Origin: a virus
Taxonomy: Duplodnaviria; Caudoviricetes
Length of the DNA stretch: 31,036 nucleotides
Virus record (IMG/VR): IMGVR_UViG_3300016484_000911
Span: 1-31,036 of that record
Direction: 5' to 3' (one strand)
A program made the translations under genes and the position numbers. The notes below the pieces were generated by a model, which saw only the letters and a program-made list of their open reading frames with translations, had not been told where the DNA came from and searched no databases. Shown here one piece after another: positions 1-25,665 of the stretch (its first letter is position 1; every line of letters starts with the position of its first letter).

Positions 1-150
1 AGACTAATCTCCACTCTCACAGATAGGGAAAGCGTTTCTACTGGTATGTACTACGATTATGTGAGACGTATACACGATTGCCGAGTTGATGAGAGATATA
101 AGTCGGTAGTGCTAGCTGAACTTGATGAGGCTTATGACGTTAGGTGGTAG
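1..150 (+). CDS. 3' end of a hypothetical early protein (truncated by window edge)
   Basis: Frame 1 is open from base 1 to TAG at 148-150 (RLISTLTDRE...AYDVRW) and is followed by a terminator. Confidence 0.6.
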   Translation, partial: RLISTLTDRESVSTGMYYDYVRRIHDCRVDERYKSVVLAELDEAYDVRW

Positions 151-178
151 CTAACTCCCCCGCATCACTAGTCCAATG

Positions 179-207
179 AGGGCGGTCATAGTACCGTCCT
201 TTTTTTT
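179..207 (+). terminator. Rho-independent terminator
   Basis: Stem AGGGCGGT/ACCGTCCT (one G-U pair), 6-nt loop, then a T-run. Confidence 0.8.
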
Positions 208-228
208 ATTCAAAAACAGAGAAAAAGA

Positions 229-257
229 TTGAAGCAGATCTCCCACTCGAGCAGAAT
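229..257 (+). promoter_or_regulatory. sigma70-type early promoter
   Basis: TTGAAG-17 bp-CAGAAT with an A-rich UP-like element; the same geometry is conserved in copy 2. Confidence 0.7.
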
Positions 258-288
258 AGGTATTAAGAGACGATGTTCTGGAGGACAT

Positions 289-591
289 ATGGACACACAA
301 GCTACGAATGGCGTGCTCCTACGGGACGAGCTGATAGTGCTCGCGCAGTCCCTTGAGAGCGGATTCTCTCTGGAAGAGGGAGAATTCAATAGAGTAATCG
401 AGGCAAAGAGGGTAGCAAGTCGCACTGCGGACTACGATAGCTGGGTAATCTGTCGCGCGATTTTAAAGTTGGACACCGCTGTGCGAGCCAGAGTTGAAGG
501 AGACATAGAAGCTGCTCTCATGTGGGAGCGGAGAGCTCAGGAGCTCTATGATCTCCTCCCTGCATCGGCCAGGTGGGGCAAGACTGCGTAG
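289..591 (+). CDS. Hypothetical early protein (100 aa; start moved from 229 to ATG 289)
   Basis: GGAGGA RBS before ATG 289, identical context to ATG 1034; the TTG at 229 is the -35 hexamer. Confidence 0.8.
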   Translation: MDTQATNGVLLRDELIVLAQSLESGFSLEEGEFNRVIEAKRVASRTADYDSWVICRAILKLDTAVRARVEGDIEAALMWERRAQELYDLLPASARWGKTA

Positions 592-618
592 CGATTTTAA
601 CGACAAACGGAGGCGACA

Positions 619-894
619 ATGACAATCACATTAACCATCAAGAAACTCGATTATTCCGCTAACCCTTGGAGGATCTGTATCAATGAGAACGAATGGAGGT
701 ATGACGGCTTCAACTCACTCTCTTTTCCTCGAAAGAGAGATGCGAAGCCTACCCTCGAGGCGCTCCTTGCGATAGGAGATTGGAGCCAAGAGTTCTCGCA
801 AGAACAAAGAGGGAAGGTTGTCGAAATAATCAAAGAGAGCGAGAGTTTCAAATCTCGGCAAGCTGTCCTTTCCCGGACTCGAGGAGGTTGGTAG
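619..894 (+). CDS. Hypothetical early protein
   Basis: GGAGG RBS, ATG start, 91 aa, terminator downstream. Confidence 0.8.
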   Translation: MTITLTIKKLDYSANPWRICINENEWRYDGFNSLSFPRKRDAKPTLEALLAIGDWSQEFSQEQRGKVVEIIKESESFKSRQAVLSRTRGGW

Positions 895-911
895 GTAATC
901 GATTGTCTAAG

Positions 912-1037
912 TCACGAGTTCAATGAGAGAGTTCAAAGCACCTCTCTTTTTTTATTCAAAAGAGAGAAAAAGATTGAACCAGATCTGGGTGTCGCGCAGA
1001 ATAGTTTTTATAAGATGATGTTCTGGAGGACATATGG
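912..1037 (+). repeat. Terminator-promoter-RBS cassette, copy 2
   Basis: Hairpin AGAGAG/CTCTCT (926-947) with T-run, TTGAAC(974)-17 bp-CAGAAT(997-1002), then TTCTGGAGGACATATG. Confidence 0.9.
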
Positions 1038-1240
1038 CAGAGCGAATCAACAAATACATTTACCTCTACAAGGTTCAAGGCTACTACTCTGATCAACATA
1101 AATGGGAGACTGTGACCGCCAGTGAGTCTCTCTCTGAGGCAAGGAGAGACCTCAGAGACTATAGGATAAATGAGCCGTACCAGTTCAGGCTGGTGAAGGG
1201 AAGGGAGAAGAATCCTAGCTATAAGGGGGAGGGGTTATGA
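1034..1240 (+). CDS. Small hypothetical phage early protein
   Basis: Strong RBS; the pattern QGxY...WExV...EA...LxDYRxN resembles small phage early-region proteins (recalled, not searched). Confidence 0.8.
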   Translation: MAERINKYIYLYKVQGYYSDQHKWETVTASESLSEARRDLRDYRINEPYQFRLVKGREKNPSYKGEGL

Positions 1241-1482
1241 GAACAGAGACTCGAAGGCTACACGAGTTAGAAACTCGGAAGCTCTACAGGTTTGACGAAC
1301 TCACTGAGGAGTTCCAACGGGAGGCATTAACTAAACTGAGGAAGGAGAATGAGAGGCGACTAGCAAGGGGAGAGCCTCTATGGTGGGACATAGGCGCTTT
1401 CGACCATACCGTAATTGATGAGATATGCTATAATGAGTTCCGGTTTGGTTGGGAGTTTACTGAGGATGGTGAGTTAGCTTAA
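1237..1482 (+). CDS. Small phage protein with YxFDEL...EFTEDG motifs
   Basis: ATGA overlap with the upstream gene; LYRFDELT and EFTEDG motifs recall a widespread phage/plasmid family of uncertain function. Confidence 0.75.
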   Translation: MRTETRRLHELETRKLYRFDELTEEFQREALTKLRKENERRLARGEPLWWDIGAFDHTVIDEICYNEFRFGWEFTEDGELA

Positions 1483-1504
1483 GGGAGCGGGGGAGGGGAG
1501 TAAA

Positions 1505-1816
1505 GTGACACGTTACGGGTTTATTATGAAGCAACTATCATCGGAAGAGTTTCAGGCTTGGAAGAGAAAAGAGAGAGCTCGGGTGGTAGATCTGTTCACA
1601 GCAGGAGAGACCGACCCAACTATTCACGCAATTGCCAAGCTGATCAGCTCCGGCATGGAGTATAGCGATATATTCCAATCGGAGGAGTGGGTACGGCTCG
1701 GTAACGGCTCCCGGTTCCTAGAGAGGCGCGCTCGAGCTGAGCATCGGGTGAAAACTGAAGGGGTGGAAGAGATGGATGTGGAGTATCTCGATTGCTGGAT
1801 GGAGGGTGTGGAGTAG
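1505..1816 (+). CDS. Hypothetical early protein
   Basis: GGAG RBS, GTG start (ATG 1526 is an alternative), followed by a terminator. Confidence 0.7.
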   Translation: MTRYGFIMKQLSSEEFQAWKRKERARVVDLFTAGETDPTIHAIAKLISSGMEYSDIFQSEEWVRLGNGSRFLERRARAEHRVKTEGVEEMDVEYLDCWMEGVE

Positions 1817-1824
1817 TCGGAGCG

Positions 1825-1844
1825 GGGAGGCACGCCTCCCTTTT
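1825..1844 (+). terminator. Rho-independent terminator ending the early + block
   Basis: GGGAGG-CACG-CCTCCC followed by TTTT. Confidence 0.75.
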
Positions 1845-1881
1845 GCCTATCTCGTCCAGTAGCTACCCTGCTTAAGCCTCT

Positions 1882-2193
1882 CTATCTCCTAAATGTCCAT
1901 TCAGTGTTGTTAGAGAACTCCTCTCTAGAGACAGCTGGACTAAGGCCCCTCCCTTCTAAGAAGCGTACCCAACCCATCGCAAGCTGAAGTGCCTCATCTT
2001 TAGCTCCTTTATGAGTGGCTCGAGAGAGGGGGCATATCCCGACAGTCCAAGGGGTATCGGAGCGGGGGTAGAGTCGTATAGTGACCTGCCCTCCCTGTTT
2101 GTTCTCCCAGATCTTGATGGTCTCAAACTCCTCCAACCAGTGTTGCTCGCCCTCTATCTCTAGAAGCTCACCATATAACCGATAGCTCGTCAT
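1882..2193 (-). CDS. Hypothetical protein (likely start MTSYRLYG at 2193)
   Basis: GGAGG RBS before the ATG at 2193; has its own promoter upstream. Confidence 0.7.
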   Translation of the reverse strand: MTSYRLYGELLEIEGEQHWLEEFETIKIWENKQGGQVTIRLYPRSDTPWTVGICPLSRATHKGAKDEALQLAMGWVRFLEGRGLSPAVSREEFSNNTEWTFRR

Positions 2194-2226
2194 GCCTAGT
2201 CCTCCACTCCTCTCAGTCTTAAGAGA

Positions 2227-2255
2227 ACTATATCCCCCTTCTATAACCGTGTCAT
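2227..2255 (-). promoter_or_regulatory. sigma70-type promoter for the 1882-2193 gene
   Basis: On the minus strand ATGACA-17 bp-TATAGT. Confidence 0.55.
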
Positions 2256-2584
2256 CACATCCCAGGTACAACCCTTGCTCTTATCTCTCTCACTGCTATC
2301 AGTAGGTGAATGGGGAGGACGTACTACTAGAGAGGGAGGAGAATGTGGAGCGGGGAGAGATACTTAGACTATGCAAAGATTGCGTAGTGATTAGAGGCTT
2401 GTTAGAGGTCATTAGAGAGGGGGGAGAGGCTGGGGATAGGGGAGGATATGGAGCGGGGGGATCGTTCAATGGCGGGGCTCCTAGGGGCCTTAGAATTGAT
2501 ATTTAGAGCATAGTTCTTCCTTATCGCTACACATTTTGGGAGTGAACCTAATAAGGTATTGTGTTCACATCTTACCCCTTTCCC

Positions 2585-2597
2585 CAACCCCTTGATT
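2585..2597 (-). promoter_or_regulatory. IHF-consensus site
   Basis: CAACCCCTTGATT is the reverse complement of WATCAANNNNTTR. Confidence 0.5.
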
Positions 2598-2722
2598 TTA
2601 CTAGGGCTCAGAGTCAAGGCTGAGAGGATATGATGGCAGAGGGGAGACGTAAGTGATTGGAATGATTAGCGATCTAGTCTTCTGGCTCAACGTTCGACTC
2701 TCTGATCTGAGCTGAGGAGCTG

Positions 2723-2735
2723 TAAGTGGTTGATA
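2723..2735 (-). promoter_or_regulatory. IHF-consensus site
   Basis: TAAGTGGTTGATA matches YAANNNNTTGATW; a near match (TAAGTGATTGGAA) lies at 2650-2662. Confidence 0.5.
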
Positions 2736-2890
2736 TCGTTGAGGAATGGAGTCGTTGCCCACCGCGACCGGCGTTGTGATTCTGATGCCTCACCCACCAC
2801 CACATAAAAAATAAAAATCAGAAAATCTCACTTCCGATAACGAAATTTATATTACCCCGCTCCACCTACCCCCACCCTCCACCTGCACAC

Positions 2891-3078
2891 CATCCCTAAA
2901 GAGCACATGCCCTTTAAAGGGCCATAGACACCCCTAGGTTCAATTCGAGAGGGGTGGGCTAGGCTTTCCCCCTCTCCGACCCCTCCCTCTCAACCTAGAG
3001 CCTCCTAGGGGCCTTAACGTGGGTGTCGCCCTAAAGGGCCCCTGTGCTCGCGCTGTTAGTTAGGCGGAGCCTCAGATG
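2891..3078 (+). ncRNA. Candidate structured RNA or ssDNA element (long stem plus three-way junction)
   Basis: Nested helices 2901-2907/3043-3049, 2909-2916/3032-3039, 2919-2922/3028-3031, 2927-2933/3021-3027, 2934-2940/2992-2998, 2947-2953/2985-2991 and 3000-3004/3008-3012; G-U pairs favour the + strand. Confidence 0.55.
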
Positions 3079-3166
3079 ACGTAGAAGTTCGGAGTTCGAG
3101 ATCATAAGTTATCCGAAAGTAACCGGAGAAAAAGTGCAATGATTTAGCGGGGATAGCTTGGGTTAT

Positions 3167-3298
3167 TTACCCCCAAACACGATAGTACTTACCCCCAAAC
3201 ACGATAGTACCGCTGTTTTAGCGACATTTCAGAACAGGGGTTTTATCTCAAGTACCCGATAGTAAAAACAGCGTAATTACCCAGATACACGATACCCC
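3167..3298 (+). repeat. 22-bp iteron-like repeats
   Basis: TTACCCCCAAACACGATAGTAC perfect tandem at 3167-3188 and 3189-3210; degenerate copies near 3243 and 3277. Confidence 0.8.
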
Positions 3299-3339
3299 CG
3301 CAACGTTGTTTGAGTATGATTATCGGAAGCTAGCCGGGG

Positions 3340-3367
3340 TTGACAAAAAAAGTTTAAGTGACATTCT
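3340..3367 (+). promoter_or_regulatory. Putative promoter for the packaging/virion operon
   Basis: Perfect TTGACA at 3340, 16-bp spacer ending in TGn, then CATTCT. Confidence 0.5.
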
Positions 3368-3671
3368 GAAGGGTTAAGTAGTTTTTAGTGAGCCTAGTGA
3401 AAATATTTTGCAAAAGGTACTACTGCTACCCCATTTTTTATGCTACCCTCCATTGGTAAGAAGAAAAGATTTATCTTAATCCTTCCTTCTTGAAACCCCT
3501 TGAAGTCTCGGGCAGAGACCAATTACCCCCGTTGGGATAATTCTCCTAGATTAAATAACACCACTTATTACTATCAATGATTGATTACCTTTGTTGGCTA
3601 TGAAGGAAGAGAAAAGACTCTTCTCTCACTGCTAACAAAGAGGTGGTGACACCTACATACATGAGGTTCTC

Positions 3672-3995
3672 TTGCGACATTTTCTCCCCGCTCCAAATAT
3701 CAACATCTCCGGTTATAAGAGAAGACCTACCCAGATACTCACAGGAGATGATCTCCCCGATGGTAAATATGCTGGCATAAGAGAGACGTGGGAGAGGATG
3801 ACTAAGGAGTGCCATGACTACAACCCCTCTACCTTTGGCAAGAAGGCGAGAAGATACGTGTGGTCTGTCTGGAGGGACGACTACACATCCTTCAAGAAGT
3901 GGTCTCTTAAAAGTGGTGGGTGGGGAGCGGGGAAAAACTTATGCTTGATAGACCCGAACGGCAACTATTGCCCCCGCAACTGCAAGTGGGTTTAA
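3672..3995 (+). CDS. Degenerate HNH-endonuclease-like protein
   Basis: W..M..EC...V...W.....FK.W and IDPNGNYCPRNCKWV parallel the intact family member at 27441-27902, but IDRID is replaced by LCLID; start codon uncertain. Confidence 0.6.
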   Translation: MRHFLPAPNINISGYKRRPTQILTGDDLPDGKYAGIRETWERMTKECHDYNPSTFGKKARRYVWSVWRDDYTSFKKWSLKSGGWGAGKNLCLIDPNGNYCPRNCKWV

Positions 3996-4057
3996 ACCTC
4001 TAAACTTCACTCCCCCGCTCCATATCTCACATAATCTCCTGACACTCATAGGGGATT

Positions 4058-4585
4058 ATGACTCATCAACCACTGTTCGCCATCAAGTACAAAGACGGTC
4101 GCATCTCTAGCACTTCCACGGCGGAGCAGCTATTTGAAGCTATCCAGAAACTCCTCCCCGCCACAGAGATCTACTCAGTCACACCAGACCCAGACGGTAA
4201 AGGATTCTCCTATCGGGAGGTAGGCACTCTAGTTGTGGACTTTCAAGCCACAGGGAGTACCGATTCAGTACAGGCCCCCGCCCCTGTACAACCTCCCACA
4301 CCTCCCCCCTCTCCAATTACCCCCGCTCCCCTATCGAGTCCTGACCAGTACGTATTCACTCCAGATGTCCCCGCTCCAAAACCCCAACCAACTCCTCCCT
4401 CAAAGCCTAAACGAGGGAGAAAGCCGAAAGAAGCACATATCAGTAATGACCCTAATGACACGTCATGGGAGGCAGACTTGCCTAAGCCGGTAGTAACGGA
4501 GCGGGGGACGATGCAGGTAACGGGGATTTATGAGGCTTCTCCTCAGCAGGCAGCAATGGCTAGTCACTTCGGGAAGAACTGGTGA
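4058..4585 (+). CDS. Proline-rich hypothetical protein upstream of TerL
   Basis: AGGGG RBS, GTGA overlap with TerL, central Pro-rich linker and a KRGRKPK AT-hook-like motif. Confidence 0.75.
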   Translation: MTHQPLFAIKYKDGRISSTSTAEQLFEAIQKLLPATEIYSVTPDPDGKGFSYREVGTLVVDFQATGSTDSVQAPAPVQPPTPPPSPITPAPLSSPDQYVFTPDVPAPKPQPTPPSKPKRGRKPKEAHISNDPNDTSWEADLPKPVVTERGTMQVTGIYEASPQQAAMASHFGKNW

Positions 4586-6216
4586 TCAAATTCATCTACC
4601 ACCAGAACCCGGATGAGGCGATCAGGCAGAAATCGGCAGAGCTGGCCAAGCTCAAGGCCAACAAGAGCACCTACCCCCTCTACAAGAAGCTACTAGGCGA
4701 AACCCTCAAGCATGACCTCTGGTATCTGCTGCGAGTAGGACTCCAGATGAATTTCTTGGACGAGCAGCTCACAGGACATGATTTCATCAAGCACCTCTCT
4801 GACAACTGGGGAAGCGACATAGGCATCCTTCTCCCTCGAGGCTTCGGCAAAACCCTCCCCGTCTCTGGGATGTGCATCTCGTGCATCTTGCAGGATCCGA
4901 ATATCGCGATGCTTCAGATGTCTCGAACGGACGGTAACGCTGACAAAATAGGCGCGTTCGTATCGGAACACTTGATGTACAACGACATGTTGCAGGAATG
5001 TTTCGGGCGGAAATACAACCCAGACGGGTTTCTCCCCTCTTCAGTCAGTGAATGTGGTTCGTGGGGTAAAGATGGGTACATGTTGCCCTATCGCACCGTC
5101 CGCAGAATCGACCCTACCTTCGTGAACATCTCGCTCAAGTCTGCAAAGGCCGGGAAACACCCTGATATCATCTGGGTCGACGACGCGACTGAGAAGGAGA
5201 ACAACAATGAAGTGGGGTACGAACACGTCGATGACGTTATCAGAGGACTCAAGTACCTCCTCCCCGCTAACGGGTTCATGATCTGGACCGCGACTAGATG
5301 GAGTGACGCCGACCCCGTGGGGAGAGCTTACGACAAAAAACTTAGGGGGAAGCAGGGCTACTTCAACTTTCTCCTCAGAAGTTGCTATGTGGATGACGAT
5401 CCGGCTAAGGGAGTCACCTATCCCCGCAAAAAAAGGTGGGGCATGGAGATTGAGACCGGATACACACTAGAAGCGCTAGAAGAGTTGCGGACAGACCCGA
5501 TAGAAGGACCTATGTTCTCGGCACAGATGAGGAATGACCCCGCTCCAAGCGACACTACCGAGATATCTGCTGCTGATATTCGCATTTACGACCCCGCTGA
5601 CAAACCGAAGTACATATCACCTGATAGCGTCCGAATGTTCGGAATTGAGATAACAGGTGGCGGAAGACCCATTTATAACGGGTTCCGTGACTTTTGTGAA
5701 GAGCTAAGAATCAACATTCCGCTAGTCGAGCTCAAGTCGCCTAAAGAGGCGGGGATGGAGAAGGCTGACAAGATAATTGCGGCGCTCCAGCCCATTGTGG
5801 CGCAGGGAAAACTCCACTGCCAGGAGTGGATGATAGGGGATGTGACCCGCCAGAAGGACACTTTGGGTTATGAGCTCCAACGTTGCAGGGTGGCGGTCCA
5901 TGATGATATAGCGGATGCGCTGTCTAAGGTAACAGCTATGGCGGGGAAGCTCACTCCCTCACAGCCAAACGAACCAGCCCACCTCTACATCTCGGTCGAC
6001 CTAGCCTATACCGAGAAAACCCGTTCTGACTTCACCGTAGCGATAGCAGTCGCCATAGACCACGCCGGGAACTGGTGGGTCTTGAACTATGACCGCTTCC
6101 AGCTCGAACGTCCCACTGAATTATACAATAGACTGCTCAAATTCTATCGTAAGTTTGAGGAGCCTGTGTCACTCCGCTCCTTATCAGGTCGGAAGTACCC
6201 TGGCTCCTGGCGTTAA
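4582..6216 (+). CDS. terL: Terminase large subunit (nuclease domain apparently circularly permuted)
   Basis: Walker A LLPRGFGKT, Walker B IIWVDD, motif III ATRW, FSAQMRNDP linker; nuclease motifs GIE, HDDIADAL and YISVDLA..SDFT; lies upstream of the portal. Confidence 0.92.
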   Translation: MIKFIYHQNPDEAIRQKSAELAKLKANKSTYPLYKKLLGETLKHDLWYLLRVGLQMNFLDEQLTGHDFIKHLSDNWGSDIGILLPRGFGKTLPVSGMCISCILQDPNIAMLQMSRTDGNADKIGAFVSEHLMYNDMLQECFGRKYNPDGFLPSSVSECGSWGKDGYMLPYRTVRRIDPTFVNISLKSAKAGKHPDIIWVDDATEKENNNEVGYEHVDDVIRGLKYLLPANGFMIWTATRWSDADPVGRAYDKKLRGKQGYFNFLLRSCYVDDDPAKGVTYPRKKRWGMEIETGYTLEALEELRTDPIEGPMFSAQMRNDPAPSDTTEISAADIRIYDPADKPKYISPDSVRMFGIEITGGGRPIYNGFRDFCEELRINIPLVELKSPKEAGMEKADKIIAALQPIVAQGKLHCQEWMIGDVTRQKDTLGYELQRCRVAVHDDIADALSKVTAMAGKLTPSQPNEPAHLYISVDLAYTEKTRSDFTVAIAVAIDHAGNWWVLNYDRFQLERPTELYNRLLKFYRKFEEPVSLRSLSGRKYPGSWR

Positions 6217-6235: not shown

Positions 6236-6400
6236 ATGGAAAAGAAAGATCAAATCAACTACCGAAAGATGCCGGTTCCTTCGACCCCCGGCGCACAGCA
6301 AATCACCAATGAAGGCGGCGAATATAAGAAGGGCGGGAGCTCTCTTACTCATTCTATGCCAACCAAGTACGTCGTACCTGGCAGCGACAAGAAAAAGTAA
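6236..6400 (+). CDS. Small basic protein (54 aa) between TerL and portal
   Basis: GGAG RBS then ATG 6236 (MEKKDQINY...SDKKK); fills the intergenic gap. Confidence 0.6.
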   Translation: MEKKDQINYRKMPVPSTPGAQQITNEGGEYKKGGSSLTHSMPTKYVVPGSDKKK

Positions 6401-6406
6401 GTACTC

Positions 6407-8488
6407 ATGGCGAGAAAATCAGCGCAGTCCAAGGAAAAAGAGATCACAACGTCCATCAAGAATCTGATAGACGGATGTGACCAGAAGACCGCGCTGATTA
6501 AGAACACCTGGCGCGAGAATTACGATATCTTTGTCTCCGGTACGCGAACAGATGAGAAAGAGGAGTGGCAGACAGCGTTTTCTGTCAACAAACTTGGGAC
6601 ATCTACTCGGGCAGCACAGGGGAGACTTGTAAACACCATCGTAAATACTCCTGACTGGTACAAGATGGAACCAGTTGGTTATGCGAACACGCAGGCTGAA
6701 GTATTAGCTCCAACGTTTAAAAAACTGTTGGACTACTACCTAGATAGCGCGAAGTTCAAGCGTCACGCCGGGACGTTCTTTTTATGTTCTCTTATCAGCC
6801 AAGGCGCAATGTACGTCGGCTGGAAGAGGAGGATGATACAAAACCCTGAGTACATAATCAAGGCGACTCAGGAACAATTCCAGAAAGAGCAGCAGAGAAT
6901 AGCGGGGAAGGTTGTCAACCCTCAAGCGGAGACTGAGCTAGCTCCTGAGGACATGGAAGCTCGCCTCCTCCAAGCCCTAGATGAGTTCGTTGCAGAAGCT
7001 CAAGGCCTAGCAGTAGAGGAAGAAGATGTCCCTGAGTGGGTTCAGATTGGATGCCTTGACCTAAAAGACATCAACCACGAAAAGCTCTACTGGGACAGTA
7101 ACGTGATGTACATGGAGGATTCCCTGTGGAAAGCCTTCAAGTACACAGTGAACAGATGGGAGCTCGAGAGAGACGCACAGCTTGGTTATTTCTCGAAAGA
7201 GAAGGTAGCGAAGATCTCAGGTAAGAATGACATCGCAGCACGAAGTGCGATGGAGCGACGACGATACAACAATATCGGAGAGTCCCCCGCTGATAATACC
7301 GATCTAGTCGAGCTCACGGTTTACACTGGTCCCCTTATCATTGACGGGAAGGTTGTTAAAGATCGCTACTTCGCAGTCATCGCGAACGATGATCTTATCC
7401 TCAAGGATGGGGAGTATCCTTTCTGGGAACCGCCAGGGCATCATACGCCCATAGTGGCGGCTGCTGTACGGCAGATTCCATATCGCGCTACTGGCGCTGG
7501 CTTAGGTGACGGAGCGGTCAAGCTCCAGAAGATTTATGACTCCAACTGGCAGCTAGTCTGTGACACGTTCCGGTTCGGCATAGCGGGCGTTAACGTCGTT
7601 AACTATCAAAACCTGGTAGACAAGTCTCAGCTGGCAGAGGGCCTCTACCCTGGAATGACGCTTGAGGTGAGAGGCACCCCGAAGGAATCCTTCGAGCATA
7701 TCGACCTCACGAGCAACATAGAGAACCAAGCCCACCCAGTTCAAGGGATGCTTGAGCAGGCAATAGACCAGCTCACAGGTATCAATGAACTCATGGTGGG
7801 AGGGAGTAATCCTTTCTCTCGCACAGCGGCCGCCGAAACTCAGGCGAGGCTGGAAGCTGGAAATGCGAACGTAAACACTATTGCTCTCGACCTAGAGCAA
7901 AACTTCCTTATCCCGATACTCCAGAAGTGCTTTGCACGAGTCCTTCAGTTCGGCTTAAACGAGCTCAACACTAACCCAGAGCTTCAAAATCTCTTCTCCC
8001 CTGAGGAGATGAATGAGCTCACAAGGATTACCTCCACTGCTCGGTATAACGTCTTGAGCATGTGGTATCGCTTCAAGATAGAAGGCTTCTCCGCATCGAC
8101 TGACCAGAACGCAGAGATGCAGAGGATGAATGAGCTCCTCTCTATCGTAAATAGCGGAGGGCCTCTGGCGTCCCTCATAAACCTCCCTGAGTTCCTGAAG
8201 GAGTACTTCAAGGTAATGGGAGTGAAGGAGCCAAATAGATTCCTCATCGTTACTCAAAGCCCACTGGCGATAGTGACAGCTGAGAACCAGGCGCTCATGA
8301 CGGGGCACGCCGTAGCCCCTTCTGAGAGCGACGACCACGAGTTCCACTTGCAGATGCATGGACCGCTAGCAATGGGGCCGACTGCTACGCCTGAGATGCA
8401 GGAGCATTACCAGATGCACCAGATTGCGATGCAGGAGCAGCAGATGATGATGGCGGAGCAGCAGTCGCAGCAGCAATTACCTCAATAA
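6407..8488 (+). CDS. Portal protein (podovirus/P22-like)
   Basis: 693 aa after TerL; helical; IDQLTGINELMVG..SRTAAAE motif; His-rich and Gln-rich C-terminus. Confidence 0.85.
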   Translation: MARKSAQSKEKEITTSIKNLIDGCDQKTALIKNTWRENYDIFVSGTRTDEKEEWQTAFSVNKLGTSTRAAQGRLVNTIVNTPDWYKMEPVGYANTQAEVLAPTFKKLLDYYLDSAKFKRHAGTFFLCSLISQGAMYVGWKRRMIQNPEYIIKATQEQFQKEQQRIAGKVVNPQAETELAPEDMEARLLQALDEFVAEAQGLAVEEEDVPEWVQIGCLDLKDINHEKLYWDSNVMYMEDSLWKAFKYTVNRWELERDAQLGYFSKEKVAKISGKNDIAARSAMERRRYNNIGESPADNTDLVELTVYTGPLIIDGKVVKDRYFAVIANDDLILKDGEYPFWEPPGHHTPIVAAAVRQIPYRATGAGLGDGAVKLQKIYDSNWQLVCDTFRFGIAGVNVVNYQNLVDKSQLAEGLYPGMTLEVRGTPKESFEHIDLTSNIENQAHPVQGMLEQAIDQLTGINELMVGGSNPFSRTAAAETQARLEAGNANVNTIALDLEQNFLIPILQKCFARVLQFGLNELNTNPELQNLFSPEEMNELTRITSTARYNVLSMWYRFKIEGFSASTDQNAEMQRMNELLSIVNSGGPLASLINLPEFLKEYFKVMGVKEPNRFLIVTQSPLAIVTAENQALMTGHAVAPSESDDHEFHLQMHGPLAMGPTATPEMQEHYQMHQIAMQEQQMMMAEQQSQQQLPQ

Positions 8489-12835: not shown

Positions 12836-13822
12836 ATGACAGTAGAGGTCTTTACCTTCTCAGTATCATCCTCCTCTCCAGGAGGAAGCACTACCATAGA
12901 CCGCACCTGGTTTGGCCCTGGTACGGATGGTAACGTTACGATGTCCGTCAATCAGACTCTCACTGGCGACAAGTTCTACAACAATCTCACTATCAATAGC
13001 GGCGTATTCCTACAAACTGCTAACCCCAGCACTCGCTCTCCCCGCCGGATATTTGTGAAAGAGACGCTTACTATAAACGGAATTATTACCGCGGGGCACA
13101 ACGCTACCGTGGCTAATAGCTTTGGCGTCCCCAACATCTCCGCGTCCGACTACCCCGATAACACCATTGGCATGTGGGGGGGGAGTACGGACGGAGGTTC
13201 TCCTAACCCCACGCTCTCTTCTGGCAATGGCAATAACGGGGGGTCGGCTGCTGCCGCATACGGGTTCGGTGGAGCTGGCGGAGCCGGAGGCTCTGGAGGA
13301 AATGGGAATGGCGGAAGAGTGGGCGGAACGGGAGGGACTTCCGGCACACCCTTCGGCTCTCGCATGTGGTTCTTCTGCGAGCACATGTGGCTCTTCGATA
13401 CATTCCAAATGGGAGGAAGTGGAGGCGGAGCTGGCGGTAATGGCGGTGGCGACGGGACCAACGTAGGAGCCCGTGGGGGAGCCGGAGGTGCTGGGGGAGG
13501 TATCGTTTGGATAGCCGCAAGGACTATCGTGATTAACGCTACCGGAGGCATCCGCGCACAAGGAGCGAGAGGAGGGAACGGCAACAACGCCACAGCTTCG
13601 GGCACCGCTCGAGGAGGTGGTGGTGGAGGTGGTGGTGGCGGTGGAGGTCTAATCCTTCTAGCCTACGAATCTCTTACCAACAACGGATTTCTTTCGGCGG
13701 CTGGCGGGAATGGAGGGTCTGGTGGCAGCGGTTTTGGAGCTGGAACTGCTGGTGCTACAGGGGCCACGGGAGCGGCAGGGAAGATTATTCGCTACAACTT
13801 CACCACCGGGGAATACGAGTAA
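12836..13822 (+). CDS. Glycine-rich tail/adhesin-like protein, paralogue 1
   Basis: WFGPGTDGNVT..FYNNLTI..RIFVK, GGAGGGIVWIAAR and GGGGGGLILLAYE motifs. Confidence 0.8.
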   Translation: MTVEVFTFSVSSSSPGGSTTIDRTWFGPGTDGNVTMSVNQTLTGDKFYNNLTINSGVFLQTANPSTRSPRRIFVKETLTINGIITAGHNATVANSFGVPNISASDYPDNTIGMWGGSTDGGSPNPTLSSGNGNNGGSAAAAYGFGGAGGAGGSGGNGNGGRVGGTGGTSGTPFGSRMWFFCEHMWLFDTFQMGGSGGGAGGNGGGDGTNVGARGGAGGAGGGIVWIAARTIVINATGGIRAQGARGGNGNNATASGTARGGGGGGGGGGGGLILLAYESLTNNGFLSAAGGNGGSGGSGFGAGTAGATGATGAAGKIIRYNFTTGEYE

Positions 13823-14802
13823 TGGTGGCCAAGCAGTACTTCTTTGGTGCCGGAGCCTCTGGCAGCGGGGGGCAGCTTCAGCGCTACTGGTACGGCACCG
13901 GAGCCGACGGCAATGTTGTGATTCCTGCTAGCACGACGCTTTCGACTGACATGTTCTATGACAACCTTACAGTCAATGCGGGCGTGATTTTGAGCCTCGG
14001 AAGTAACGTTCGTTCTCCTTGTCGGATACACGTGAAGAACACTCTTACAGTCCACGGCACTATTCGGTGTGGCCACGACAGGACAGCGCACGACCCATCA
14101 GGGCTGGCGTACGGCGGCGCAGCTTCGAGTATCGTCGGTGTGGGAGGGACTCTCGGAGGATCGGGCACAGGTAGCGATGCAGGGTTTGGACTCACAACGA
14201 CAGGCGGAGCAGCCTCCGCTGTGGGCTTAACTCGATATTCAGGCGGACAGGGAGGTGCGGGCGGACAGGGAGGTGCGGGTGGCACACACCCAGGAGGAGC
14301 GGGCGGGGCGCTGCAAACAGCTGGCTATGGCTACCGTTTTTTTGAGACGTTCACGCATGATCTGTGGATGGGGACAAATGGAACCGACGCAGGGGGGTAT
14401 ACTGGTGGCGGTGCTGGAGGATCCGGTGGTGGCGGCGGTGGGGGCAATGGGACCAACTCGGGTGGCATAGGAGGTAAGGGCGGAGCTGGTGGCGGCGTAG
14501 TGTGGATAGCCGCTCGGGACATCGTAGTCGCAGGTAGTATTGAGGCCAACGGAGCAAAGGGCGCTAATGGTGCCCCGGGCTCCTCGGGTGGCGGCGGCGG
14601 AGCAGGCGGCGGCGGCGGTGGGGGAGGGGTGATCTTGTTGGCTTATGAATCCCTCACCCTCACGGGCCAAATCACAGCTCTCGGCGGATTGGGGGGCTCA
14701 GGAGGAGCAGGCGGAGCTGGAGCTTCAAACGGAGCAGACGGAGCGACAGGACAATCGGGAGTAGTTTACCACTTCAACTTCACTACCGGAGACCCCGCAT
14801 GA
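13822..14802 (+). CDS. Glycine-rich tail/adhesin-like protein, paralogue 2
   Basis: WYGTGADGNVV..FYDNLTV..RIHVK, GGVVWIAAR and GGVILLAYE; coupled at both ends. Confidence 0.8.
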   Translation: MVAKQYFFGAGASGSGGQLQRYWYGTGADGNVVIPASTTLSTDMFYDNLTVNAGVILSLGSNVRSPCRIHVKNTLTVHGTIRCGHDRTAHDPSGLAYGGAASSIVGVGGTLGGSGTGSDAGFGLTTTGGAASAVGLTRYSGGQGGAGGQGGAGGTHPGGAGGALQTAGYGYRFFETFTHDLWMGTNGTDAGGYTGGGAGGSGGGGGGGNGTNSGGIGGKGGAGGGVVWIAARDIVVAGSIEANGAKGANGAPGSSGGGGGAGGGGGGGGVILLAYESLTLTGQITALGGLGGSGGAGGAGASNGADGATGQSGVVYHFNFTTGDPA

Positions 14803-15785
14803 CAGCGCGACAATACCCTATAGGGGGATTCGCTACGGCCAGTTCTGGGGTGGCGGCTCGCTACTGGTTTGGAGATGGCGCAGATGGAAGCGTGACTATC
14901 TCTGCTGGGGTGACTACCCTCACCCGAGACATGTTTTATGACAACCTGACCATAGCCGCTGGCGCGACACTCAGAGCCGGTGATGGCACTTCCGCTAGCC
15001 GAAAAATTCACGTTCAGGGAACGCTGACCGTAGCGGGTACGCTCGCAGGCGGGTATATATCCACCGACACTACTCCCGGCGTTTGGATACCAGCTGGAGG
15101 TACAACAGCCGCCTCTAGCGTGTTCGGTATCCTTGGTAGCGCAGGGCAGGGCGGAACTACCGTAGTGCTCGGGGGGTTCGGCAGCGGGAACTTAGGGACG
15201 AACAACCAGAGTAGATTCAGTTACGGCGGCGCTGGCGGCAATGGCGGCAACGGGGGGAGCGCTCCCGGCGGTTCTGGCGGAACGGGAGGGACTTGCCTGA
15301 AGACGGAGTTCAGATATCCCATCTTCCGGTTCAATCCGATCTACTTCGGGGTCAATCAGAATTTCACGGCGTTCCGCAACAGGTTCGCGACATTCAGCCA
15401 AGCAGGCGCTACGGGGGGTGGTGGAGCCGGAGATGGGACAAATAGAGGCGGAACCTCTGGAGCCGCCGGCGTAGGGGGTGGCGCGCTGTGGATAGCTGCC
15501 CGACACATCATAGTGCTCCCCGGTGGGGCCATTAACAGCCTAGGACAGCCCGGCTTCCCTGGAGCCACTCCCACTGTAGGGAATTGCGGCGGTGGCGGTG
15601 GCGGAGGAGGCGGTGGTGGTGGAGCAATCTTTATCGGCTACGAGACCTACTCTAACAGCGGAACTATCAGCGTCGCTGGAGGAGCGGGTGGTGCTGGTGG
15701 CAGCGGTCGAGGCACAGGGTCAGCAGGACAGGCAGGAGAAGCAGGGTCTGCAGGGCAAATATATCTCTACAACCTAGGTGGGTAA
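14799..15785 (+). CDS. Glycine-rich tail/adhesin-like protein, paralogue 3
   Basis: WFGDGADGSVT..FYDNLTI..KIHVQ, GGALWIAAR and GGAIFIGYE. Confidence 0.8.
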   Translation: MTARQYPIGGFATASSGVAARYWFGDGADGSVTISAGVTTLTRDMFYDNLTIAAGATLRAGDGTSASRKIHVQGTLTVAGTLAGGYISTDTTPGVWIPAGGTTAASSVFGILGSAGQGGTTVVLGGFGSGNLGTNNQSRFSYGGAGGNGGNGGSAPGGSGGTGGTCLKTEFRYPIFRFNPIYFGVNQNFTAFRNRFATFSQAGATGGGGAGDGTNRGGTSGAAGVGGGALWIAARHIIVLPGGAINSLGQPGFPGATPTVGNCGGGGGGGGGGGGAIFIGYETYSNSGTISVAGGAGGAGGSGRGTGSAGQAGEAGSAGQIYLYNLGG

Positions 15786-24400: not shown

Positions 24401-25017
24401 TATTCGGTAGAGGCTTTGCCGCCCCCGTTAATGCGGTCATGCAGCAGTTCGCTTTACAGGTCCCTCGTAATTTTACGGTAGGAGAGCTGGTCGATACACT
24501 GGGGTCCTCAGCAAAACGGACTCTCCAGAAACAGTTTGCTAGCGCTAACCCAATGGTAAATGCTAGCGCACAGTTAGTTTCTGGTAAGAATTTGTACTTC
24601 GATAAGCCTCTAGATGCGGAGTTCCTCCGCAAACTTCCTTCCCTAAATGCCCTTGCAGAACGTGTTGCGGGGTACTCTTATGACGACCTCCCAGTAGACC
24701 TAGACGCCCCCGCTAAAGCTTTCCTAAAGGCCGTACCAGACGGCAAAGGAAGATTAGTAGCAGACCCAGGGCGTATGTGGATTCTGATGAACCTCATTCC
24801 TGGTCTAGGAAGAGCTACGTCAATGGCAGGAAGCCTCTCCAACACCGAGATCCCCCTCCAAGCAGGATTGTTGAGGACAATTCTCGGAGTCAATCTGGAC
24901 GATCAAGATCCGTCACGCACGTATCTGTCCAGCCAGAGGAGCAGTCTAGATAGCTTCATGAGTCAAAATTCCATCCGCCAGCAGCTCAAGAATCTTGAGC
25001 CTGAAGAAGAGGAGTAA
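21406..25017 (+). CDS. Large internal virion / DNA ejection protein (1203 aa)
   Basis: Largest ORF and last in the virion module; GFGADLLTDPLSW segment; P.YHAQN and RRFYMFYGY patterns resembling large podovirus ejection proteins. Confidence 0.7.
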   Translation: MWPFDDEEETVDYIRPDALEAVLTSSSIDQDTRNMALGIERDMGKLAQLGYDPELAEPRSSFWGELFDTLDAPRQGVAGVVDTVLRGDMFEDGVGTGWRRGQIENTSSSDILRRHDIIDNPIARGLVGFGADLLTDPLSWVSFGATATAKVGGKALTEAGTALKATGVERLMGLGVTDILEQDKILGEVFQSISRGQEAASELGKGTAATDAFHAKKLEDSRDLWSTIFKDDEVLGADLFEKRKLRVGRDLPFLGHFQKTSSGAEELISESPGVVGQALREVSKVIKPGRVSVAEFDISDDIARTFEHLNTFAQKTLDQIASAASQIPLAGKLVEPTGKALSSANELLKKTFSRKALIGATNDDITKEYLNAAAGVRVIARERALATLGEEGLRNQDDLKDAWLLIDELGAQAMKRGNLNSQQTEQILRKLALGREVADGDMLYLRDSFNIPLDETGSTAEGLFRQELQAKLADPNIRPGTKEMTAKLLGAFDDLAIEEAEAGIQHGFLEYYVAHKYKNRERNPFARKGVKANFTESRKYDTLSEAFEVSGKVADIDVPQLLESRIAKSLTLRAQKAYATRLMIENSMPQHIVQSLYREAIADPQGPAAQVLKRNKWDAPKVEIDQLREGAVTAKRAKLLAKEATDLTAEEKQLLAMSHQEFADETHKSLMAAGYTPKDAPLPDSILGEIGKEVDIPGGGKMFLPVPVAEAYKETVAARDLFKEKFGNTALGAALVKAADATTSFFKKFVTIPFPAYHAQNILGDRFRQAMSGINAMDPGVQARTASLMAGRSSIRNAAGQVLDKPTLERLIKEQGMSYNLSDYIGAIESFGDMDIDRFLRTKESIGKNIKEFKQKGAKGAAVMQLHDKFQKTFDGFFRIGEVVRRFEAGDSLYDAVRASNEMYFNYRDMTPIEASYFRRFYMFYGYMSKATKSTLTDLVTNPGNLTMQLTATRALAEFFSDPDAAPTAEMADLKLLSSTATMESLSHAVGTTPDGKPIFGRGFAAPVNAVMQQFALQVPRNFTVGELVDTLGSSAKRTLQKQFASANPMVNASAQLVSGKNLYFDKPLDAEFLRKLPSLNALAERVAGYSYDDLPVDLDAPAKAFLKAVPDGKGRLVADPGRMWILMNLIPGLGRATSMAGSLSNTEIPLQAGLLRTILGVNLDDQDPSRTYLSSQRSSLDSFMSQNSIRQQLKNLEPEEEE

Positions 25018-25024
25018 GTCCCTC

Positions 25025-25051
25025 CCTGCTGAGACAAACGTCTACAGCAGG
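25025..25051 (+). promoter_or_regulatory. Hairpin overlapping the RBS of the next gene
   Basis: CCTGCTG-AGAC/GTCT-(A)-CAGCAGG, 11 bp, with no T-tract. Confidence 0.55.
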
Positions 25052-25056
25052 TGAAT

Positions 25057-25665
25057 ATGCTTCAAGGTAAAGGTCTCGGCAAAACTCTCCTACCCAACTT
25101 TTTCTATAACCTCTCAGCAATAACTGATGAGGGAAGGCCCAGATGGGTAGATGAGTTCGCAGATGCAGCCCCTTCCATCATTCAGCTTCAAGACCTATCA
25201 GCCAGCTTCCAAAAATCCAAGGCTCAACGGAACGAAGCCTACTCACGCTGGTTCGCCTCCTTCTTTGTCATCGACGACAGCGGAGACTGTGTCCCCGTAA
25301 TTAAGCCGACTCAAATGAAGTGGCAGGCAATACGGGTCCTCCACGACAAGCACTCTGAGACTCTCACCCGCGACTGGTGGCCCAATTACAGGGACTGCCT
25401 TTTTAGGGTTTTCCTCAACCCCCAGACCATCTACGACCACGCCACCGGGGAGCATAAGCAGTGGTATCTCCTCTGTCCTGAAGACGGGTATCTCGTCAAC
25501 CGACAGGAGATGCTGAAGCGGGGAGGAAATCCTCCACCTCGTGAATACACAGGAAGGGAAAGGTGGTTGTCTGCCCATAAAGAACTTCGACGTGCTCGAC
25601 TTATTCCGGTTGAGTGCTGCCATCACCTTCGTAATGAAGGTCAAGAATATAGAGCGGACCTGTGA
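25057..25665 (+). CDS. Hypothetical protein (start GTG 25051 or ATG 25057)
   Basis: About 200 aa, Trp/Phe-rich; AGGTGA RBS-like sequence; ends just before the next ATG. Confidence 0.7.
   Translation: MLQGKGLGKTLLPNFFYNLSAITDEGRPRWVDEFADAAPSIIQLQDLSASFQKSKAQRNEAYSRWFASFFVIDDSGDCVPVIKPTQMKWQAIRVLHDKHSETLTRDWWPNYRDCLFRVFLNPQTIYDHATGEHKQWYLLCPEDGYLVNRQEMLKRGGNPPPREYTGRERWLSAHKELRRARLIPVECCHHLRNEGQEYRADL

Follow-up and report, generated by a model that had tools for sequence, protein, structure and literature searches.

Chung, Nardone and Hinkle are said to have reported, in 1990, a concatemer junction of phage T7 with a hairpin end (a title among the references of PMC4925675). In the cos site of phage lambda, the IHF site lies between the sites of the small terminase (TerS) (PMC4856287). 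The prohead RNA (pRNA) of phage phi29 accompanies a vestigial nuclease and a genome capped by terminal protein (PMC7672431, PMC11476376). Chi is enriched near the genome ends of P1-like phages (10.1101/2021.07.08.451572). In plasmids, motifs of a size similar to the element described here were proposed to act as ssDNA in replication, and the same source describes ssDNA and RNA motifs as hard to separate by computation (PMC5737381).

The locus described here lies in the window, which is the whole stretch of 31,036 nt that was analysed. This stretch covers 31 kb of the genome of a podovirus-like phage, and its plus strand encodes terL, portal, capsid and internal virion proteins. Its fold-back element was read, at a probability of about 0.5, as a lineage-specific DNA element of a genome-end and packaging block. 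The block resembled lambda cos (cosN, cosB with R1-R3, IHF site I1; PMC4856287) in being single-copy, fixed in spacing and placed just before the terminase and late genes, and in holding IHF-consensus sites and short repeated words. Unlike in lambda cos, neither a symmetric cosN nor a TerS gene was recognised, the fold-back was strong, and the large terminase (TerL) of the window was permuted and nearer to the T7 type. The likeness to T7 consisted in the nearest solved terminases, those of PhiV-1 and T7, and in fold-back DNA beside a likely genome end. Unlike in T7, no phage RNA polymerase was found among 56 proteins scanned, the early/late layout was divergent and the fold-back was branched, not a simple palindrome; the genome here is known from contigs alone. 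The element shared with phi29 pRNA a similar length and a predicted bulged stem with a three-way junction. It differed from pRNA by having no sequence or Rfam match, an unconserved junction and a terminase that keeps its nuclease residues, and the genomes, of 41-45 kb, differed from phi29 in that no protein-primed polymerase was seen. The plasmid motifs ARRPOF, GEBRO and PAGEV are likewise structured and non-coding, with RNA and ssDNA undecidable by computation alone (PMC5737381). Unlike these, the element had no Rfam match, was located at a phage early/late junction and was not conserved as one structure.

Geometry and stability of the fold-back core

The core, not assigned to a strand, was located at 2901-3049. 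A bulged stem (2901-2933 with 3021-3049) closed a junction with a long arm (2934-2998) and a short arm (3000-3012). The core comprised 51 pairs, one of them G-U, with -75.7 kcal/mol on the plus strand. Its z-score was -6.2 on this strand, with 0 of 150 shuffles as good, and -4.9 on the minus strand; DNA parameters gave -5.0 (plus) and -4.8 (minus). The wider segment 2880-3090 held z-scores of -3.85 and -3.02 on the two strands (0 of 200 shuffles as good). Among the local folds of the window computed with Lfoldz, the element ranked first on the plus strand and second on the minus strand. The fold of this 150-base stretch into a stable branched hairpin is real, nearly all Watson-Crick and without strand preference. 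The initial annotation had named a series of pairing words, all of which were present at their places, and its expectation of a folding energy better than that of shuffled controls was borne out.

The three-way junction that it had drawn was recovered in part. Mean pair probability exceeded 0.95 for the long stem, the base of the long arm (CTAGGTT/AACCTAG) and the short arm (GCCTC/GGGGC), but the pairing of GAGAGGG with 2985-2991 had a probability of about 0.06 on the plus strand and 1.0 on the minus strand. The suggested outer pairs CCTAA/TTAGG and CATC/GATG did not form on the plus strand (probability 0.00, 5.3 kcal/mol when forced), CCTAA/TTAGG reaching 0.38 on the minus strand. The proposed switch between exclusive pairings was likewise unsupported: the alternatives cost 4.5 and 5.6 kcal/mol, so that a single fold prevails, one whose purine/pyrimidine tip is slippery. 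On the minus strand the fold could be extended to a 295-nt G-U-rich rod (z -2.1 as RNA, -1.2 as DNA), which was rejected as a real extension because it was no better than its composition. A GATAAC/GTTATC base stem on the plus strand was unsupported at the offsets tried.

The stretch is an imperfect inverted repeat, partly built from repeated TAA(A)GG(G/C)CC words. Copies of TAA(A/G)GGSCC lay inside the block in four of five cases in the window, three of four in L033 and two of two in L032. A perfect 14-bp palindrome with a TAAAGGGCC-type word (2909-2922) and its stem partner, a second, near-perfect palindrome with the same type of word (3028-3039), both without assigned strand, accounted for about 12 of the 51 core pairs. 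A further 21 pairs originated from three 7-bp helices, precisely nested. Positions 3002-3016 had an exact duplicate outside the fold at 2478-2492 (plus strand). A blastn search with 2720-3320 found no match in phages and four short, chance-level matches in plasmids, and the exact element pattern was found zero times in IMG/VR. The fold could be a functionless by-product, in which palindromic binding words and template switching would have given rise to an inverted repeat in one lineage. The contribution of the palindromes, the duplicated segment, the lack of similar DNA in the phage, plasmid and IMG/VR records and the different fold in L032 are all compatible with such an origin; the 21 nested pairs and the presence of a strong fold-back in the block of four of six relatives and in L032 argue against it, and we consider it improbable.

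Conservation of the element and hairpins of the relatives

The relative L032 was the only one that could be aligned with the window element. A 22-nt word (2994-3015, plus strand) was common to both with 20 identities, a score that 2 of 500 shuffles reached. Its span from the TTTAAAGG word on the left was nearly the same in the two sequences (102 against 103 nt). In L032, the TTTAAAGG word and the 22-nt word formed a closing stem of 15 bp between them. When the window structure was imposed on L032, 22 of 41 comparable pairs were kept and 19 were broken, with only the short arm whole. As to covariation in this one homologue, six double changes were present (reached by 14 of 500 shuffles), though five of them fell in an arm with 7 of 12 pairs broken. 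Judging from this alignment, words and spacing are kept in L032 and the junction is lost. The window element showed no significant likeness to G001-G005 and a weak one to L033 (3 of 100 shuffles).

Unbranched hairpins were located at the same position in G001, G003, G004 and G005, with best z-scores of -2.9, -7.1, -6.5 and -5.4, respectively. These rods favoured the plus strand and contained six tandem GA/GA loops and one to eight G-U pairs, features that suit RNA as well as ssDNA. In four relatives, rods with symmetric tandem GA/GA loops directly followed the motif described below, at L061 1570-1625, L062 1362-1447 (minus strand), L063 1556-1645 and L064 1397-1486 (minus strand), and they are a possible ssDNA or RNA element in their own right. 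G002 and L033 held the motif and no strong hairpin. It seems that the fold-back sequence used at the block position differs from lineage to lineage. A model built from the hairpins of three relatives recovered only its own inputs and did not match the window element; it also missed G005 and is therefore insensitive. A pattern search for GA/GA hairpins detected 68 stretches, of which only G001 and G004 belonged to the family, and the other recurring groups read as coding. In Rfam, zero matches at E<=1 were obtained in the window, so the element found no counterpart there, although a far-diverged member could escape such a search. In the loci of five relatives, Rfam detected only a tRNA, and the tandem GA/GA rods were without match. 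A tRNA or tmRNA was looked for and none was found.

An alternative reading is a structured RNA other than pRNA. In this case, the element would be the 5' part of a plus-strand transcript begun at the motif by a phage sigma factor, with a role as antiterminator, processing site or small RNA. The strand bias, the up to eight G-U pairs and the tandem GA loops of the rods are in line with this, as are the sigma-like genes in four of five complete relatives and the single-copy motif, which is like a lone late promoter. Comparison of the G001 and G004 rods over 17 pairs gave three double and one single pair-keeping changes and one broken pair, but 73 of 500 shuffles reached this result. The window element itself had one G-U pair, was strand-neutral, was not kept in L032 and matched neither the insensitive hairpin model nor Rfam, and a separate sigma70-type promoter was predicted downstream. 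A structured RNA fits the rods of the relatives better than the window element, for which we regard it as unlikely.

Motif, IHF-consensus sites and Chi-like word of the control block

In the window and six relatives, the non-coding block separated the early from the late genes and immediately preceded the first late gene and terL. These seven family blocks (window, G001-G005 and L033) all shared one motif layout, which spanned 2747-2818 on the plus strand of the window. Box A (TGGAGT-like, 2747-2752) was followed after 25-26 nt by box B (GATTyWGATGmC, 2778-2789, one copy per genome) and, after exactly 14 nt, by an A/T tract (the A-tract 2804-2818 in the window). By pattern, the motif was found in four of five records and in none of the reversed controls; G002 and L033 were added by eye. 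A leave-one-out matrix ranked the motif site first in five and second in two of the seven genomes or loci, which amount to fewer than seven independent cases because G001 and G004 are close kin. The motif was absent from the distant relative G011 and from a 5-kb fragment, and the sequences of L032 and L040 begin too late for the comparison. A scan of IMG/VR detected 19 stretches, two of them from the family. A single-copy site of fixed spacing ahead of the terminase and late genes, as found here, is a trait of packaging sites.

With a consensus that we take to be that of IHF, 11 sites were called in the seven blocks, none of them farther than 270 nt from the motif (1.07 expected; maximum of 4 in 200 shuffles). 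Two of these sites were located on the minus strand of the window at 2585-2597 and 2723-2735. IHF-consensus matches and repeated words were both enriched in the block, as candidate sites for IHF and terminase binding. IHF sites are also found at origins and att sites. A sigma70-type late promoter (TTGACA-16-CATTCT) was predicted at 3340-3367 on the plus strand, downstream of the fold, which places the element upstream of the predicted late promoter. Such late-promoter-like sites (TTGACA-16/18-ATTCT) were present in the window, G001, G004 and G005, 400-715 nt downstream of the motif and directed toward the late genes. A leftward promoter-like site (3319-3346, minus strand) overlapped the late promoter and pointed into the element; relatives did not hold it at the same place. 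Separately, two more stable hairpins (z about -5) were observed at 3442-3676, between the late promoter and an HNH endonuclease-like ORF (3672-3995, plus strand), and are candidates for late-leader control. The block of G004 also held a tRNA gene (L064, 825-896, minus strand) just ahead of its predicted late promoter.

The adjacent iterons noted initially were present as three iteron-like repeats of 19 nt at 3167-3295 on the plus strand (starts 3167, 3189 and 3277), beside AT-rich DNA. The block may on this basis be a replication origin, in which the repeats would bind an initiator, IHF would bend the DNA and the A-tract would melt; the fold-back would then serve as a single-strand priming signal or as part of a leftward primer RNA from 3346-3319. 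We consider this possible though unlikely. Besides the repeats, it draws on the IHF sites, the A/T tracts, the leftward promoter-like site, the primase zinc-finger genes of relatives, the ability of the minus strand to extend to the 295-nt rod and the plasmid motifs of similar size proposed as ssDNA (PMC5737381). However, the iteron core word occurred in none of eight relatives' blocks or upstream stretches, the leftward promoter was without conservation and the extended rod was marginal both as RNA and as DNA. No initiator gene was recognised beside the block, and in G001, G004 and G005 a distance of 7-10 kb separated the primase-like genes from the motif. Of what was proposed at the outset, the structure, the permuted TerL and a connection with the control of packaging or replication hold up. 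As for the origin, the iteron word and a nearby replication gene were not shared by relatives.

The Chi-like word GGAGCGGGG, which includes the most frequent octamer of the window, was present with 17 copies versus 0.37 expected. Within a scan of 1-6000, 13 of the 17 copies clustered in 1484-5538, and 11 of these 13 faced the block. The strand flipped between 2458 and 2855, a point picked after the fact, with the last plus-strand copy left of the block at 2450-2458 and the first minus-strand copy right of the motif at 2855-2863. The word contains AGCGG, which we take to be the Chi sequence of B. subtilis, and the cluster may help to identify the host. If the word acts as Chi, a nuclease that starts from an end in the block would meet it in its active orientation; a strand flip of this kind is what genome ends would be expected to show. 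The relatives contributed one copy of GGAGCGGGG in five genomes, and a search for a similarly polarised word in them gave none. A contig from a close relative ended at 2788, within box B, which is weak evidence, and the source contig ran through the block. Contigs of the close relative left 2789-3183 uncovered, a gap that carries no weight. Altogether, the block is a likely genome cut site for packaging, as predicted from these sequence features. Since the shape is lost in L032 and the family-conserved block likely marks the packaging cut, the element is more likely to act at the DNA level than to be an RNA for packaging.

Terminase, small terminase and genome family

TerL (4582-6216, plus strand) was confirmed to have a circularly permuted RNase H-like nuclease domain. 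In its homologs, positions 55-148 of Pfam Terminase_6C matched residues 341-439 and positions 1-54 matched residues 454-510; in the window TerL, the earlier segment corresponded to positions 607-697 of phrog_38 and the later segment to positions 544-606. The acidic residues D441, D442, D445, D473 and D483 were present in 41 of 41 aligned homologs and E356 in 39 of 41, and by these residues the permuted nuclease looks intact. The nearest solved sequences were the terminases of PhiV-1 and T7 (E 7e-8 and 9e-7), at only 11-16% identity. TerL had 70 homologs besides itself, many of them on contigs of 41-45 kb; about 40 contigs from Logan, JGI and ENA encode a TerL of 50-61% identity. It had no tblastn match among annotated phages, and no TerL or capsid relatives were found in GTDB contigs. 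In the openly accessible literature, a search brought up no paper evidently dealing with a permuted terminase nuclease.

The first late gene (4058-4585, plus strand) was conserved in the family and comprised a 65-aa domain (4058-4285) with a proline-rich tail. Considered as a possible TerS, the domain showed 119 profile hits and a confident model (pLDDT 88), but nothing in Pfam, the viral set or the PDB matched its fold. It so happens that the circular contigs G001 and G002, which are unrelated to each other, are both broken inside this gene. ORF 25051 was tried as TerS and gave only a weak Atlas lead. The statement of the initial annotation that no TerS is recognisable stood, as none was identified, but it carries little weight because phage TerS proteins share less than about 15% identity between groups (PMC9611059). 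Among the 56 proteins from G001, G004, G005, L033 and the incomplete window, no family B polymerase and no phage RNA polymerase were found. Relatives encoded sigma70-region-2 proteins, RecD-like helicases, primase zinc fingers and, at a distance of about 3.5-5 kb from the motif, tyrosine recombinases; a DNA polymerase was not seen among the proteins scanned. The loci concerned were L112 (8005-8718), L122 (2348-2917), L119 (12121-12702) and L067 (185-937).

The analogy to phi29 drawn earlier would have a pRNA-like RNA join the permuted terminase to the prohead, replacing the small terminase. In its favour are the length of about 150-190 nt, the bulged stem with a three-way junction, the unusual TerL and the lack of an identified TerS. 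It did not survive the comparison and is highly improbable: the nuclease residues are kept, the nearest solved terminases are of the T7 type, the junction is not conserved (lost in L032, simple rods in four relatives), and Rfam gave no match. Descriptions of pRNA are confined to phages of the phi29 kind, whose nuclease is vestigial and which have terminal proteins (PMC11476376, PMC7672431). A broader proposal is that the family packages by a permuted terminase without a conventional small terminase, a folded nucleic acid at the end recognising the genome. This nucleic acid would be a tandem-GA rod or a branched element depending on the lineage, as ssDNA or RNA. We hold this proposal as a whole to be very improbable.

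The reading as a DNA element of the genome-end and packaging block, given even odds, draws on the fold, the fixed-spacing motif, the clustering of IHF-consensus sites, the Chi-like polarity, the inverted words and the kept nuclease residues, and also on the place of the block between early and late genes, the words and spacing kept in L032, the strand-neutral Watson-Crick pairing and the downstream position of the predicted late promoter. Several observations weigh against it. GGAGCGGGG clusters in the window genome only; the rods of G001, G003, G004 and G005 are plus-strand biased, with G-U pairs and tandem GA loops; and L032 shows the six double changes. In addition, the source contig runs through the block, G002 and L033 are without a strong hairpin, G011 is without the motif, IHF sites are shared with origins and att sites, and no TerS or other binding protein was identified. 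Under the DNA-element reading, IHF would bend the block and a putative small terminase would bind the inverted words in their double-stranded form. A cut near box B (2778-2789) would be made by the permuted TerL. If the end became briefly single-stranded, the repeat could snap back into a hairpin, which may help in completing or shielding the freshly made end; a role of this kind has been proposed for the hairpin of the T7 concatemer.

Taken alone, the element is probably an ordinary type of site in a form particular to one lineage. Its surroundings point to a 70-bp motif that may predict where the genome ends in a podovirus-like family that is widespread and uncultured, with 70 TerL homologs, genomes of 41-45 kb, a permuted nuclease domain and no annotated phage match. 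If the fold-back is needed for end processing, T7 would no longer be the only case in which a hairpin assists end formation, and this second case could be tested.

Further features were observed elsewhere in the window. A 94-nt repeat, 81% identical between 199-292 and 944-1037, resembled an early promoter with a ribosome site. The early cassettes concerned are directed toward the block; the genes of relatives at this place face away. Strong folds were located at 6343-6512 (minus strand, z -7.7), at the portal start, and at 24969-25193 (z -6.3), at the end of a gene for 1203 aa; both are partly coding. In the tail region, at 12836-15785, three glycine-rich paralogues of 326-328 aa were encoded in tandem.
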